Of a DNA stretch of 64,000 bases, positions 19,701 to 34,684 are shown piece after piece; the first letter of the stretch is position 1; every line of letters begins with the position of its first letter. The notes under the pieces are model-generated. The model saw only the letters and a list, made by a program, of their open reading frames with translations, searched no databases and had not been told where the DNA came from. Location: the sequence record NC_054935.2. One strand, 5' to 3'. The translations under genes and the position numbers were made by a program. This DNA comes from Escherichia phage YUEEL01.

Positions 19701-21128
19701 GTGGTAGAAATTATTCTTTCCCATCTCATATTTGATCAAGCTTATTTTTCAAAAGTTTGGCCATGTATGGATTCAGAATATTTTGAAAGTGGTCCAGCTA
19801 AAAATACATTCAAATTAATTAAATCTCATGTTAATGAGTACCATAGCGTTCCATCTATTAATGCGTTAAATGTTGCATTAGAAAATAGTTCATTTACTGA
19901 AACAGAATATTCTGGTGTAAAAACACTTATTTCGAAACTAGCCGATTCTCCAGAAGACCATAGCTGGTTAGTAAAAGAAACAGAAAAATATGTTCAGCAA
20001 AGGGCGATGTTTAATGCTACGTCTAAAATAATTGAAATTCAAACTAATGCTGAGCTTCCTCCGGAAAAACGAAATAAGAAAATGCCAGATGTAGGTGCTA
20101 TTCCTGACATCATGCGCCAAGCATTATCAATTTCATTTGATAGTTACGTTGGTCATGATTGGATGGATGACTACGAAGCACGTTGGCTATCTTATATGAA
20201 TAAAGCTCGTAAGGTTCCATTTAGACTCAAAATTCTAAATAAAATTACTAAAGGTGGAGCTGAAACTGGAACACTGAACGTTTTAATGGCTGGTGTTAAC
20301 GTCGGTAAGTCATTAGGTCTGTGTTCATTGGCAGCAGATTATTTGCAGCTCGGACATAATGTTCTTTACATTTCCATGGAAATGGCAGAAGAAGTCTGTG
20401 CTAAGCGTATTGATGCTAATATGCTTGATGTTTCTCTTGATGACATTGATGACGGGCATATTTCTTACGCTGAGTATAAAGGAAAAATGGAAAAATGGCG
20501 CGAGAAATCTACTCTCGGTCGTTTAATAGTTAAACAGTATCCTACTGGTGGAGCAGATGCTAATACATTTCGATCGCTTTTAAACGAATTAAAGCTCAAG
20601 AAGAATTTTGTTCCAACAATCATTATTGTCGACTATCTGGGTATTTGTAAATCTTGCCGCATTAGAGTTTACTCAGAAAATAGTTACACAACTGTTAAAG
20701 CCATTGCAGAGGAATTACGTGCTCTTGCTGTTGAAACCGAAACTGTTCTTTGGACTGCAGCACAGGTTGGTAAACAAGCTTGGGATTCTTCTGATGTTAA
20801 CATGAGCGATATTGCAGAATCTGCCGGTCTTCCAGCAACAGCTGATTTTATGCTTGCGGTCATTGAAACCGAGGAGCTAGCAGCTGCTGAACAACAACTC
20901 ATTAAGCAAATCAAATCACGATACGGTGATAAGAATAAATGGAATAAGTTTTTGATGGGTGTTCAAAAAGGAAATCAGAAATGGGTAGAAATTGAACAAG
21001 ATTCTACTCCAACTGAAGTGAACGAAGTAGCAGGTTCACAGCAAATTCAGGCTGAACAGAATCGCTATCAAAGAAACGAATCCGCTCGAGCTCAGTTAGA
21101 TGCTTTGGCAAATGAATTAAAATTTTAG
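19701..21128 (+). CDS. 41: gp41 replicative helicase (DnaB-like)
   Basis: 475 aa, GTG start after AGGAG, MVEIILSHLIFDQAYFSKVWP..., Walker A GVNVGKS; matches T4 gp41. Confidence 0.93.
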   Translation: MVEIILSHLIFDQAYFSKVWPCMDSEYFESGPAKNTFKLIKSHVNEYHSVPSINALNVALENSSFTETEYSGVKTLISKLADSPEDHSWLVKETEKYVQQRAMFNATSKIIEIQTNAELPPEKRNKKMPDVGAIPDIMRQALSISFDSYVGHDWMDDYEARWLSYMNKARKVPFRLKILNKITKGGAETGTLNVLMAGVNVGKSLGLCSLAADYLQLGHNVLYISMEMAEEVCAKRIDANMLDVSLDDIDDGHISYAEYKGKMEKWREKSTLGRLIVKQYPTGGADANTFRSLLNELKLKKNFVPTIIIVDYLGICKSCRIRVYSENSYTTVKAIAEELRALAVETETVLWTAAQVGKQAWDSSDVNMSDIAESAGLPATADFMLAVIETEELAAAEQQLIKQIKSRYGDKNKWNKFLMGVQKGNQKWVEIEQDSTPTEVNEVAGSQQIQAEQNRYQRNESARAQLDALANELKF

Positions 21129-21157
21129 TTTACAAGCTGACAAGACTATGGTATAGT
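21128..21157 (+). promoter_or_regulatory. T4-type early promoter upstream of dmd
   Basis: gtttac, 18 bp, tatagt; an 8-bp inverted repeat caagacta/tagtcttg (21141..21164) straddles the -10. Confidence 0.5.
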
Positions 21158-21186
21158 AGTCTTGTTGGTTAAATGAGGAGATTGTT

Positions 21187-21369
21187 ATGGAATTGGTAAA
21201 GGTAGTTTTTATGGGGTGGTTTAAGAACGAAAGCATGTTTACTAAAGAGATCACAATGATGAAAGATGACGTTCAATGGGCTACTACTCAATATGCTGAA
21301 GTTAATAAAGCACTAGTTAAAGCTTTCATTGATGACAAGAAGGTATGTGAAGTGGATTGCCGAGGATAA
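21187..21369 (+). CDS. dmd: Dmd, antitoxin against RnlA/LsoA-type toxins
   Basis: 60 aa MELVKVVFMGWFKNESMFTKEITMMKDDVQWATTQYAEVNKALVKAFIDDKKVCEVDCRG, recognised as T4 Dmd. Confidence 0.85.
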   Translation: MELVKVVFMGWFKNESMFTKEITMMKDDVQWATTQYAEVNKALVKAFIDDKKVCEVDCRG

Positions 21370-21370
21370 T

Positions 21371-21628
21371 ATGCATATCGTTTTATTTAAACCTACTCCG
21401 TATAATGTCAGGAAAAATACTCAATTCAAAGCACTTATTGCAGATACGTGGGAATTAGTATTAGATATTCCGGCAGAAGAAAGCCCTCCATTTGGTCGAG
21501 TGGAATTTATTAAGTTTGCTGTGCGCCCTACAAAGCGACAGATTCGTCAATGCAAAAGATACTTTCGTAAAATCGCCAAGTTAGAGAAACAGTTTGTAAC
21601 ATGTGATTATGCAGAAGTTTTAAAATAA
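21371..21628 (+). CDS. hypothetical protein (T4 61.4 position; possibly a TifA-like ToxN inhibitor)
   Basis: 85-aa ORF directly after dmd; functional guess rests only on position and on uncertain memory of the T4 literature. Confidence 0.4.
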   Translation: MHIVLFKPTPYNVRKNTQFKALIADTWELVLDIPAEESPPFGRVEFIKFAVRPTKRQIRQCKRYFRKIAKLEKQFVTCDYAEVLK

Positions 21629-21688
21629 CTGTTTACTTTTATTGGAAATTGAGATACTATATAAACATAAACTACTGAGGAGATTATC

Positions 21689-21982
21689 ATGAAAAAATTT
21701 ATCTTTGCTGCAATTTTTGCTTTATCTTCTTGCGCTGCTCAGCCTGCTATGGCGGGTTATGACAAAGATTTGTGCGAATGGTCTATGACTGCAGATCAGA
21801 CTGAAGTTGAAATTCAAATTGAAGCGGATATTATGAATATCGTTGAACGTGATCGTCCTGAAATGAAAGCTGAAGTGCAAAAACAACTTAAATCTGGTGG
21901 TGTAATGCAGTATAATTATGTTCTGTATTGCGATAAAAACTTTAATAATAAAAATATCATCGCTGAAGTGGTAGGTGAGTAA
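21689..21982 (+). CDS. sp: Spackle-like periplasmic protein (superinfection exclusion / lysozyme inhibitor)
   Basis: 97 aa with cleavable signal peptide MKKFIFAAIFALSSCAAQPAMA; size and position match T4 sp. Confidence 0.65.
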   Translation: MKKFIFAAIFALSSCAAQPAMAGYDKDLCEWSMTADQTEVEIQIEADIMNIVERDRPEMKAEVQKQLKSGGVMQYNYVLYCDKNFNNKNIIAEVVGE

Positions 21983-21994
21983 TTAGAGGTTAGT

Positions 21995-22351
21995 ATGTAT
22001 AGTTCTGAATTTTCATATTTAAAAATGGAAAAAATTTCATACGATTTTATAGATGAAAAGGTTTATTACAGTTTCCATGAACCACGTTTTAATAGTGAGG
22101 TTGGGTTTATTGTAGTAAAAGACAATTTTATTTTAAAAATATATTCAGCATTAAAGGATTTTCATTACGAAAATATTAACCTAAAATTTAATAAAGAAAA
22201 CGTTCGTAATTGTGCAGTAACAATTACAGGAAATAAAGGCACATGTGTTATGCTATCTGATGAAATTAATGATTTGCTAAATGATGCCGAAAAGGTTGCT
22301 ATTCCATCTATTGATGACCAAATTTTTAATGCTTTTATGAATAGAGGTTAA
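21995..22351 (+). CDS. hypothetical protein (T4 61.2 position; possible anti-DarTG AdfA-like factor)
   Basis: 118-aa ORF; functional suggestion is positional only. Confidence 0.4.
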   Translation: MYSSEFSYLKMEKISYDFIDEKVYYSFHEPRFNSEVGFIVVKDNFILKIYSALKDFHYENINLKFNKENVRNCAVTITGNKGTCVMLSDEINDLLNDAEKVAIPSIDDQIFNAFMNRG

Positions 22352-22352
22352 T

Positions 22353-22517
22353 ATGAAAACATATAAAGAATTTATTAAAGAAGATATGGTTGCTGGAGAT
22401 TCAGGTGGTAATCCTGAAAATATCTCTACTGGAACAACATCAGGTGCTGTAGTAAATAAAGGTCCTGAACAGATTCCTAAAAAGAAAAAAGAGGAATCTA
22501 AAGAAAAAGAAGAGTAA
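22353..22517 (+). CDS. hypothetical small acidic/lysine-rich protein
   Basis: 54-aa ORF read by eye, MKTYKEFIKEDMVAGDSGGNPENI... Confidence 0.35.
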   Translation: MKTYKEFIKEDMVAGDSGGNPENISTGTTSGAVVNKGPEQIPKKKKEESKEKEE

Positions 22518-22520
22518 AGA

Positions 22521-23549
22521 ATGTCATCAATAGCTTGGATTGATAATGAGTTTGCATATCGTGCATTAGCTCATTTACCTAAATTCACACAAGTAAATAA
22601 TAGTTCAACTTTTAAATTACGGTTTAGATGCCCAGTTTGTGGAGATTCAAAAACCGACCAAAATAAAGCGCGTGGATGGTATTATGGTGATAATAATGAA
22701 GGAAATATTCATTGTTATAACTGTAACTATCATGCGCCAATCGGAATATATTTAAAGGAGTTTGAACCTGATTTATATCGTGAGTATATCTTTGAAATAA
22801 GAAAAGAAAAAGGTAAAAGTCGTCCAGTAGAAAAACCTAAAGAACTTCCTAAACATCCTGAGAAGAAAATAATTAAATCTCTTCCGTCATGTGTTAGATT
22901 AGATAAACTGGCGGAAGACCATCCAATTATAAAATATGTAAAAGCTCGTTGTATTCCAAAGGATAAATGGAAATATCTTTGGTTTACAACCGAATGGCCT
23001 AAATTAGTTAATAGTATAGCTCCAGGAACATATAAAAAGGAAACACCTGAGCCTCGTCTTGTTATTCCAATTTATAATGCTAACGGAAAAGCTGAGTCTT
23101 TTCAAGGACGTGCATTAAAGAAAGATGCTCCTCAAAAATATATCACCATCAAAGCTTATCCTGAGGCAACAAAAATATATGGAGTCGAACGAGTTAAAGA
23201 TGGTGATGTATATGTTCTAGAAGGACCTATAGATTCACTTTTTATTGAAAATGGTATAGCTATTACGGGTGGTCAATTAGACCTAGAAGTTGTTCCATTT
23301 AAAGATAGACGAGTGTGGGTTTTAGATAATGAACCTCGTCACCCTGACACTATCAAGCGAATGACTAAATTAGTTGATGCAGGAGAAAGGGTTATGTTTT
23401 GGGATAAATCTCCCTGGAAATCAAAAGATGTTAATGATATGATTAGAAAGGAAGGTGCAACCCCTGAACAAATTATGGAATATATGAAAAATAATATTGC
23501 CCAGGGGTTAATGGCTAAAATGCGGTTATCTAAATATGCCAAGATTTAA
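22521..23549 (+). CDS. 61: gp61 DNA primase
   Basis: 342 aa; N-terminal zinc ribbon CPVCGDSK...HCYNCNYH and TOPRIM-like EGPIDSLF; matches T4 gp61. Confidence 0.9.
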   Translation: MSSIAWIDNEFAYRALAHLPKFTQVNNSSTFKLRFRCPVCGDSKTDQNKARGWYYGDNNEGNIHCYNCNYHAPIGIYLKEFEPDLYREYIFEIRKEKGKSRPVEKPKELPKHPEKKIIKSLPSCVRLDKLAEDHPIIKYVKARCIPKDKWKYLWFTTEWPKLVNSIAPGTYKKETPEPRLVIPIYNANGKAESFQGRALKKDAPQKYITIKAYPEATKIYGVERVKDGDVYVLEGPIDSLFIENGIAITGGQLDLEVVPFKDRRVWVLDNEPRHPDTIKRMTKLVDAGERVMFWDKSPWKSKDVNDMIRKEGATPEQIMEYMKNNIAQGLMAKMRLSKYAKI

Positions 23550-23845: not shown

Positions 23846-25185
<1,340 letters not shown>

Positions 25186-33539: not shown

Positions 33540-33569
33540 GTTTACTTCCTCGGTTAGTTGTGGTATTAT
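33540..33569 (+). promoter_or_regulatory. T4-type early promoter
   Basis: gtttac, 18 bp, tattat. Confidence 0.55.
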
Positions 33570-33596
33570 AACACCATAGCTACTGAGGATAATAAA

Positions 33597-34107: not shown

Positions 34108-34611
34108 ATGATTAAAAATAATGCTGTTTATCAATTGAAAAAATTTGATGAAATTAAGAATTTTCCGGTACTGTCTAATACAGCTCATAATAAGTTTTGT
34201 GAACTTCTTGCTTTAACTGGCGGATATCCTTTTACTGTTATTAGTGTTAATAGCGGAATTCTTATCGGCATGATGTATATTGAAATTAGAAACTATTATG
34301 GAATGGTGTCATCGCTTATTATTTATGAAAAAGATTTTAGTCTATTGACAGAAATTGAAAAAGAAGAACAGGAAAAATTCCATATTGATATGGATTTAGT
34401 TTCTATGTATGTGGCACCAGTTGAAAAAATTGAATACCCGACTGATTTGTTGTGTAAGGCGGTTTACATTCGTCGTCCATTCGCGAATCCGGTCGGTGGT
34501 TGGGTAACTGACCAGTGGATTGAAGATGGCGTTGAACTTCTGAACGTAGTTCATGCTGGAGAATACTCTGTAGTTCCTCGTAGCGCAGTGATTAATGTTC
34601 GTGTAAGCTAG
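34108..34611 (+). CDS. hypothetical protein, paralogue of 34685..35176
   Basis: C-terminal TDQWIEDGVELLNVVHAGEYSVVP aligns with TDQWVEDGVKLYNAVFLGTYKVIP in the next ORF. Confidence 0.5.
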   Translation: MIKNNAVYQLKKFDEIKNFPVLSNTAHNKFCELLALTGGYPFTVISVNSGILIGMMYIEIRNYYGMVSSLIIYEKDFSLLTEIEKEEQEKFHIDMDLVSMYVAPVEKIEYPTDLLCKAVYIRRPFANPVGGWVTDQWIEDGVELLNVVHAGEYSVVPRSAVINVRVS

Positions 34612-34640
34612 TTTACAAACTCTTGGGACCAGAGTATAAT
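34611..34640 (+). promoter_or_regulatory. T4-type early promoter
   Basis: gtttac overlapping the upstream stop, 18 bp, tataat; the -10 sits in the loop of a ggacc/ggtcc inverted repeat. Confidence 0.5.
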
Positions 34641-34684
34641 GGTCCTGTGGAGTATAAAATCTTTTTAACAAGTGAGAGATAATT

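Follow-up and report, generated by a model that had tools for sequence, protein, structure and literature searches.

Between the core replication genes 41 and 61 of Escherichia phage YUEEL01 (NC_054935.2), within the 64,000-nucleotide (nt) stretch analyzed here (the window), five small open reading frames (ORFs) follow one another on the plus strand, where a sequence-only reading had placed them between the helicase and primase genes. The segment 21000-22600 is 100% identical to Escherichia phage vB_EcoM-fFiEco06 (Tequatrovirus) and 90 to 100% identical to 507 phage records; the window runs opposite to the standard T4 map. The best overall explanation, to which we assign a probability of roughly 0.8 together with the interpretations of the 118-amino-acid (aa) protein, gp61.1, and the promoter hairpin developed below, is that this region is the Tequatrovirus version of an accessory-gene islet set between two core genes and organized in two early-promoter units. 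Its features are as follows.

19701..21128, plus strand: gene 41, replicative helicase, left border of the islet (471/475 residues identical to T4 gp41; DnaB-like helicase annotation in NC_054914)
21128..21157, plus strand: T4-type early promoter of dmd-tifA, GTTTAC, 17-nt spacer with TG, -10 TATAGT (pattern scan, identity to T4, PMC9391042, OL960580)
21135..21170, plus strand: hairpin or inverted repeat across the -10 element, with a perfect 9-bp core at 21140-21148 / 21157-21165 and a 15-bp stem as sense RNA
21187..21369, plus strand: dmd, antitoxin against RnlA and LsoA (Pfam Dmd; 60/60 residues identical to T4 Dmd)
21371..21628, plus strand: tifA (T4 gene 61.4), 85 aa, RNA-binding inhibitor of the ToxN endoribonuclease (83/85 identical to T4 gp61.4; Pfam DUF7279)
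21631..21660, plus strand: second early-promoter-like site, GTTTAC-N18-TACTAT, in front of sp (pattern scan, PMC9391042)
21689..21982, plus strand: sp, periplasmic Spackle (Pfam T4_Spackle; 93/97 identical to T4 Sp)
21983..21994, plus strand: 12-nt spacer, TTAGAGGTTAGT (comparison with the 3' end of adfA)
21995..22351, plus strand: gene of a 118-aa single-module AdfA paralogue, RB32ORF033c type (Pfam AdfA, phrog_4122)
22353..22517, plus strand: gene 61.1, 54 aa, with an N-terminus resembling a capsid targeting sequence (CTS), a segment like the N-terminal arm of gp23, and a Lys/Glu-rich tail (52/54 identical to T4 gp61.1)
22521..23549, plus strand: gene 61, DNA primase, right border of the islet (336/342 identical to T4 gp61)

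The islet would be expressed as two units, P(dmd) serving dmd-tifA and P(sp) serving sp, the 118-aa gene, 61.1, and 61. The dmd promoter (TTTACA-17-TATAGT, 21129-21157) agrees with the sigma-70 consensus at 10 of 12 positions and carries the TG of an extended -10; the TAG stop codon of gene 41 overlaps its -35 region. Across the window, the T4 early-promoter pattern GTTTAC-N16-18-TAnnnT occurs 21 times, 19 of them on the plus strand, against 2.8 occurrences expected. Record OL960580 annotates the dmd promoter as an early one, and in T4 it is documented to drive dmd and 61.4 (PMC9391042, citing Liebig & Ruger 1989 and Miller 2003); the same paper mentions a promoter downstream of tifA. The genes are tightly packed: the tifA start overlaps the dmd stop codon, as in T4, its ATG lying within a longer TTG-started ORF, and gene 61 starts 3 nt past the 61.1 stop codon. 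An IMG/VR scan with Dmd returned five loci only, all near-identical, and GenBank phage records were therefore used for comparison. NCBIfam and PADLOC gave no match for any of the five islet proteins, nor did Rfam for the stretch 20900-22700.

The T4 islet, dmd-tifA(61.4)-sp-adfA(61.2)-61.1, has the same flanking genes 41 and 61, the same gene order, and both early promoters. Dmd is identical in the two phages, and TifA, Sp, and gp61.1 match at 83/85, 93/97, and 52/54 residues, respectively. The 61.2 slot, occupied in T4 by the 208-aa AdfA, holds in the window the 118-aa single-module paralogue and, unlike T4, the window has a 12-nt scar-like spacer after sp. The view that this interval is a counter-defense locus holds, given an identical Dmd and the T4 assignments of 61.4 as the anti-ToxN protein TifA and of 61.2 as the anti-DarT1 protein AdfA; as an idea, it was published in 2022. 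Srikant et al. (2022, eLife; PMC9391042) wrote that the 41-61 region of T4 "may be an anti-TA island," TA standing for toxin-antitoxin, and named its remaining genes as attractive antitoxin candidates. The islet as such adds nothing to that published proposal.

The comparison with other genera shows that the 41-61 interval is a genuine accessory-gene site bounded by core genes, since its gene content differs from genus to genus. RB69 (L008) has two extra ORFs before dmd, imm.1 and imm (superinfection immunity) inserted between 61.4 and sp (L008 3058-3736), and two small ORFs before 61.1. Shigella phage SP18 (L010, 3149-3950) has no tifA and carries two tandem AdfA-family paralogues of 146 and 119 aa. 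In a Klebsiella phage the interval consists solely of sp, two small ORFs flanking it, and 61.1, and in an Aeromonas phage of one ORF plus a long 61.1; in Phi1, dmd lies elsewhere in the genome. Thus, sp and 61.1 persist in the interval, and its variation lies in dmd, tifA, and the AdfA family.

The first three genes can be placed on known functions. Dmd matches the Pfam family Dmd (PF17587) over its full length (1-60 of 60, E = 1.6e-46) and the PDB entry 5hy3_B, 'Antitoxin Dmd'. From its 100% identity to the T4 protein, for which inhibition of RnlA and LsoA is described (PMC3014915, PMC9391042), the window Dmd would bind and neutralize these two RNase toxins. The 85-aa ORF had been singled out by the sequence-only reading, with the other uncharacterized small ORFs, as a priority candidate for a defense inhibitor; that status lapses here because the ORF is tifA, whose mechanism is published (PMC10853763). 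T4 61.4 was renamed tifA; it shares with dmd a transcript from the early promoter that precedes the latter, and its product inhibits ToxN (PMC9391042), an activity demonstrated for the T4, T2, T6, and RB69 homologues. Guegler et al. (2023) reported that TifA binds ToxN and RNA and traps the toxin in an inactive ribonucleoprotein (PMC10853763), and at 98% identity to T4 the window protein, which matches DUF7279 at E = 2.2e-20, would do the same. Its translation has F41, the weak-inhibitor state of wild-type T4 TifA, and retains K55, R56, and R59, the residues jointly mutated in the RB69 TifA variant used for RNA sequencing (PMC10853763). The TifA sequence found no match among PDB sequences.

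Sp is covered in full by Pfam T4_Spackle (PF25676, E = 1.6e-44) and matches the PDB entry 6x6o at E = 8.3e-60, other Spackle entries being 6xc0, 6xc1, 7cn6, and 7cn7. As read from the translation, its signal peptide ends in AMA before a Gly (N-terminus MKKFIFAAIFALSSCAAQPAMA, then G). Sp is a periplasmic inhibitor of the gp5 tail lysozyme with a role in superinfection exclusion, not against host immunity; once exported, it would block this lysozyme when further phages superinfect. Spackle structures are solved, and the protein is no inhibitor of host defense. As a separate observation, the motif of the RegB endoribonuclease, GGAG, lies within the Shine-Dalgarno (SD) sequences of dmd (21177-21180) and sp (21679-21682), and these early messages may be RegB targets.

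The gene that sets this islet apart from that of T4 encodes the 118-aa protein. Against the Pfam AdfA profile (PF23813) the protein scores 34.4 bits (gathering cut-off 27), with only profile positions 113-211 of 211 covered, and the precomputed PF23813 assignment on its close homologues agrees. Its best family match, phrog_4122 (a 118-residue family), extends over the full length at E = 1.4e-72. Aligned with the C-terminal half of T4 AdfA, it shows about 34 to 37% identity (35/95; 34% over 103 columns, BLASTP E = 2.5e-8), and the last 14 residues of the two proteins are identical. Outright identification with T4 AdfA (gp61.2) was rejected, that protein having 208 residues of which only the C-terminal half aligns; in place of the full two-module architecture (about 208 to 216 aa), the 118-aa protein has a single module. 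With the AdfA proteins of RB69 and T4 it shares the homologous C-terminal half including position 164, an identical tail, DDQIFNAFMNRG, and the genomic slot. It differs from them in its single module, in an identity of about 34%, and in the Cys found where T4 has His and RB69 has R164 (NVRNCAV versus NIINHIA in T4 and NNINRIA in RB69). This position matters for specificity in AdfA, as the R164H substitution confers DarT1 binding on the RB69 protein and T4 has His at 164 (PMC11257639).

The anatomy of the family supports this description. A profile search of 5.8 billion proteins retrieved 73 members, which fall into size classes of 116-125, 144-148, and 206-216 aa, and HMMER, run exhaustively on 1.84 billion representatives, yielded no more than 10 AdfA-family clusters (50% identity); all members with a meaningful source name come from T-even-type phages. 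The AlphaFold 2 (AF2) model of the 118-aa protein (predicted local distance difference test score [pLDDT], 82.5) has five strands, a helix, a strand, and a helix, with the tail as a detached helix of low confidence. In the AF2 model of AdfA (pLDDT 71.6), the order of five strands, helix, and strand occurs twice, and a profile built from single-module proteins matches AdfA twice as well, in the C-terminal half at independent E values (i-E) of 1e-11 to 1e-17 and in the N-terminal half at 5e-4 to 0.2. From these models and profiles we conclude that AdfA is a tandem of two beta5-alpha-beta modules and that the 118-aa protein is one such module plus the tail. A Foldseek search of the 118-aa model against the PDB gave nothing below E = 0.1, the same model recovered only members of the AdfA family among the BFVD viral models, and the family profile had no match among PDB sequences.

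The distribution of the short gene bears on its origin. RB32 carries a full adfA followed in tandem by ORF033c, whose product is 96.6% identical to the window protein; in the window, as in T2 and in ECO07P4, the short gene stands alone, and T4 has adfA alone. In a comparison of tail DNA, the spacer TTAGAGGTTAGT and the ATG that follows it resemble the 3' end of adfA, AGAGGTTAATATG, so that the spacer is probably the scar of an adfA deletion from an RB32-like tandem. In an evenly spaced sample, about one-quarter of the close homologues of the short gene had a second match in the same record, presumably adfA. That the 118-aa gene is itself a decaying, functionless remnant of adfA would fit the coverage of only half of AdfA and the failure of the T2 orthologue to protect against DarTG1, and it is nevertheless very improbable. 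The ORF is intact in 331 phage records, 290 of them at >=90% identity; it coexists with a full-length adfA in RB32 and other phages; distinct orthologues at 44 to 49% identity occur in other genera; and the AF2 fold is confident and compact. An identity of 34% to the C-terminal half of AdfA further argues for an old paralogue and not a recent truncation.

Our best inference is that the 118-aa protein would bind a toxin stoichiometrically, one different from the E. coli DarT1 used in tests to date, the variable body giving specificity and the tail providing a shared function. The phenotype of T2 delimits this proposal. T2 has been treated as adfA-less, and without adfN it loses four logs of plating on DarTG1 (PMC11257639). 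It carries, however, only the short gene, 94.9% identical to that of the window, and its sensitivity in the absence of adfN indicates that the short protein does not neutralize that DarT1 at native expression. This DarTG1 sensitivity of a phage with only the short form weighs against a toxin-binding role, as does the lack of a phenotype for T4 AdfA itself at its native level (PMC11257639). As a counter-defense candidate, the 118-aa ORF thus keeps its standing as an uncharacterized gene, qualified by its nature as a half-length AdfA paralogue whose T2 orthologue gives no protection from DarTG1 without adfN.

The tail is the most constant part of the family. The sequence DDQIFNAFM(N/K)R(G/D) is invariant at the C-terminus of all members, the bodies of which are only 22 to 46% identical and form three subfamilies. 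In the window it reads DDQIFNAFMNRG, encoded at 22310-22351, and it is found at the 3' ends of the AdfA-family genes in the comparison loci L008, L010, and L013. Its codons vary synonymously between genera, which indicates that the tail peptide itself is under selection. We tentatively suggest that AdfA-family proteins could be modular adaptors recognizable by this tail, through which toxin-binding bodies of different kinds would attach to a single common partner. In the last codons of the 118-aa gene, a MotA-box-like TGCTTTT stands 12 nt upstream of a TAATAT (22328-22354), and the pair could be a middle promoter for 61.1-61. Such a promoter was rejected as the cause of tail conservation, SP18 keeping the peptide with TGCCTTC at that place.

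The last ORF of the islet, 61.1, is its least islet-like gene. Homologues of gp61.1 occur in 1,394 phage records (hosts including Escherichia, Klebsiella, Acinetobacter, and Aeromonas) versus 798 for Dmd, and in six of eight phages examined 61.1 immediately precedes the primase gene, the exceptions being RB16, with one small ORF between them, and RB69, for which the available stretch ended inside 61.1. By homology, 61.1 is near-universal in the Straboviridae as a neighbor of the primase gene. Such a conserved companion with head-targeting features is not of the variable accessory type, and the proposal that the 54-aa ORF inhibits a host defense is not sustained; most likely, gp61.1 is not a cytoplasmic inhibitor.

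Two similarities point to the phage head. Residues 2-38 of gp61.1 align with residues 57-93 of T4 gp23 (16/37 identical, BLASTP E = 1e-8); all homologues tested hit the same gp23 segment at E values of 1e-8 to 1e-9 (3e-5 for the truncated RB69 fragment), and gp23 was the top match of the family profile among all PDB sequences (E = 1.3e-7). This short but real similarity explains why some records name the protein "major capsid (domain-containing) protein." The HK97-type capsid fold (about 500 residues) is absent, the match being confined to gp23 57-93 with no Pfam capsid domain. The gp23 maturation site cleaved by gp21 is presumably LTE|A, within the segment aligned to gp61.1. At that position, (I/L/M)-x-E is kept across the gp61.1 family, Glu10 being invariant. 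Besides, the first ten residues of gp61.1, MKTYKEFIKE, resemble the MKTYQEFIAE with which the T4 internal proteins IPII and IPIII begin, i.e., their CTS, and T4 gp61.1 starts MKTFKEF, exactly like IPI. Residues 4 and 7 of the CTS are the main determinants of targeting, and residues 8 and 10 those of processing (PMC9026906); gp61.1 retains all four (Y4, F7, I8, and E10), and no second occurrence of a relaxed CTS pattern turned up when the window was translated in six frames. The putative CTS-type packaging signal in the smallest gene of the islet is apparently unreported.

Long forms of gp61.1 (149-163 aa) are found in Acinetobacter, Aeromonas, and RB16-type phages (L015, L016, L017), where a conserved N-terminal domain of about 100 residues (phrog_2086) precedes a C-terminal CTS-like motif; for this domain, neither a Pfam match nor any resemblance to the gp23 propeptide was obtained. 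The long forms hence carry the cleavage motif internally, unlike the N-terminal CTS of the T4 internal proteins. IPI, IPII, and IPIII are furthermore basic, whereas the mature part of gp61.1 would be acidic to neutral and gp23-like, and 61.1 lies beside the primase gene instead of in the internal-protein locus.

From these features we infer that gp61.1 would enter proheads and be cleaved by gp21 at its prohead-protease site I-x-E. More tentatively, it might be an unrecognized head-targeted mini-protein conserved across the Straboviridae, whose first ten residues serve as a CTS and which gp21 cuts after Glu10, to leave an N-terminus reading DMVAGDSGGNPENISTGTTSGAVVNK; in the long forms, cleavage would follow the equivalent internal (L/M)-x-E. 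The released peptide, copying the N-terminal arm of gp23, would then occupy sites in the capsid lattice or scaffold or be injected with the DNA like the internal proteins. Several observations pull the other way: the mature part would be slightly acidic, the internal proteins being basic; 61.1 belongs to an early/middle transcription unit beside the primase gene; and the searchable literature holds no report of gp61.1 in T4 heads or of head targeting by 61.1.

The similarity to gp23 residues 57-93 would also be expected if gp61.1 were an early cytoplasmic decoy of this capsid segment that is never packaged and blunts a host system sensing or using gp23, e.g., of the EF-Tu/Lit type or another capsid-triggered defense. 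The early transcription unit adjoining counter-defense genes is consistent with such a role, and EF-Tu is reportedly bound more stably by the first quarter of gp23 than by the isolated 29-residue Gol peptide (PMC3014915). We nonetheless consider a decoy unlikely: near-universal occurrence and a fixed place beside the primase gene are not what host-specific decoys show, and a conserved CTS and protease site would be needless for one. The copied gp23 segment also ends just short of the presumed position of the Gol region.

The remaining feature of the islet is the inverted repeat across the -10 element of the dmd promoter, which had been put forward as an 8-bp palindrome and a possible operator. 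The repeat is real and one base longer, with 9-bp arms ACAAGACTA (21140-21148) and TAGTCTTGT (21157-21165) separated by 8 nt; the -10 hexamer (21152-21157) falls within the loop and reaches into the right arm. On its own, such a DNA repeat is nothing unusual: perfect 9-bp inverted repeats with loops of 3 to 12 nt number 11 in the window, Markov shuffles giving 5.8 +/- 2.8. Folded as sense RNA, the element has 15 pairs, four of them G-U, with a folding energy of -18.9 kcal/mol (z = -3.5; 1 of 200 shuffles folds as well), against only -10.1 kcal/mol for the antisense strand; 50-nt windows reaching -17 kcal/mol make up only 0.43% of the window sequence. The hairpin starts 7 nt past the gene 41 stop codon and ends 5 nt before the dmd SD, leaving the latter uncovered.

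Sequence variation bears on the DNA form of this element. The promoter-plus-palindrome stretch 21128-21165 is identical in T4, where the 61-nt intergenic region departs from that of the window at a single base (21166 T->C), and this region is >=95% identical in 488 of 514 records. In an alignment of ten phages, across which the region is 95% identical and so too uniform for covariation to be telling, six distinct transitions all keep pairing (G-U to G-C, G-U to A-U, A-U to G-U, and U-G to C-G) and two transversions break outer pairs. Within the perfect core, a 21142 A->G change in RB32 and the IMG/VR locus L005 and a 21148 A->G change in SA21RB disrupt the DNA symmetry but leave RNA pairing intact, so that the dyad is not preserved as DNA; L005, SA21RB, PEC04, GEP001, and phage 132 have additional changes in the outer stem, which exists only in RNA. 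A protein-binding operator regulating dmd would account for a perfect 9-bp dyad straddling the -10 that is unchanged in most of about 500 Tequatrovirus records. We regard it as highly unlikely, for the conservation is that of the whole intergenic region and not of the arms, about six such repeats are expected per window by chance, three relatives break the core symmetry, and the sense fold is about 9 kcal/mol stronger than the antisense one owing to G-U pairs superfluous to DNA symmetry. The promoter is, moreover, a standard T4 early one. T4 early promoters are shut off globally via AsiA/MotA and ADP-ribosylation of RNA polymerase; no operator-type repressor of these promoters is known, nor a cognate repressor for this palindrome.

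The hairpin is, in turn, best read as one of three in the window that directly follow a stop codon and enclose an early-promoter -10. Among the 19 plus-strand early-promoter sites, 3 place the -10 hexamer in the loop of a strong hairpin right after the upstream stop codon, the other two being as follows.

33540-33590, plus strand: hairpin-promoter downstream of dexA (-15.2 kcal/mol, -23.1 with more flank)
34611-34660, plus strand: hairpin-promoter upstream of motB (-17.4 kcal/mol)

Both sites are conserved in T4, RB32, and SA21RB, and the right arm of the 33540 hairpin also covers the SD of the next gene. OL960580 annotates all three sites as overlapping terminator and promoter, the dmd hairpin as a rho-independent terminator on the strength of a software prediction. 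In T4, the promoters of e, soc, 49, and I-TevI lie within a stem-loop that is present in read-through RNA and not in promoter-initiated RNA. The dmd arrangement resembles these cases in the promoter embedded in a stem-loop and differs from them in that they involve late or middle promoters and are defined by occlusion of the ribosome-binding site, whereas the dmd hairpin leaves the SD free. Given the position of the -10 hexamer, P(dmd) transcripts would start near 21164, inside the right arm, and thus without the hairpin, which would form only in read-through RNA from gene 41 and could there end transcription or mark the 3' end.

An RNA 3'-end or read-through structure is most likely the function of the hairpin, with absence of any function as a serious, if on balance doubtful, rival. 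A chance repeat frozen in a strongly conserved promoter and intergenic region would agree with the high chance expectation for the DNA repeat, and the ten-phage alignment contains zero compensatory double changes, shuffled controls doing equally well. All six observed transitions keep pairing, but so would about 63% of the possible ones. Nor is the stem followed by a T-run (it continues AAATGAGG), so that it is not a canonical intrinsic terminator, and a terminator scan of 20900-22700 returned zero terminator-like sites; these points count against an RNA-level role. Chance would not readily yield a fold with z = -3.5, or 2 of 19 plus-strand early-promoter sites reaching -17 kcal/mol and a third -15.2 when 0.43% of 50-nt windows reach the former value, or three such hairpins all placed directly after a stop codon with the -10 in the loop.

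Downstream of the islet, a 186-aa ORF (23846-24406, plus strand) overlaps the start of a Dam (GATC) methyltransferase gene (24406-25185). It has a PD-ExK-like FDIVIS...EIK motif and sub-threshold matches to Pfam DpnII, a GATC-specific restriction endonuclease (E = 0.0045, 16.8 bits versus a cut-off of 23), and to RE_BanI. The corresponding place in T4 is merely a gap of 309 nt that lacks annotation, which makes the ORF an insertion relative to T4.

Taken to the level of the family, about half of the Tequatrovirus records, T2 among them, have a one-module AdfA paralogue, in place of adfA or in addition to it, and surveys in print scored such phages as lacking adfA. The paralogue provides a clean test case for the evolution of specificity in a small, T-even-restricted family. 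The hairpin design shared by three promoters offers a handle on distinguishing read-through from promoter-initiated early T4 transcripts. In gp61.1, a CTS is combined with a copy of the capsid cleavage site and N-arm in a protein far better conserved than the other islet genes; if it is indeed packaged, T4 would gain one more head component, or an injected peptide, overlooked through decades of study.

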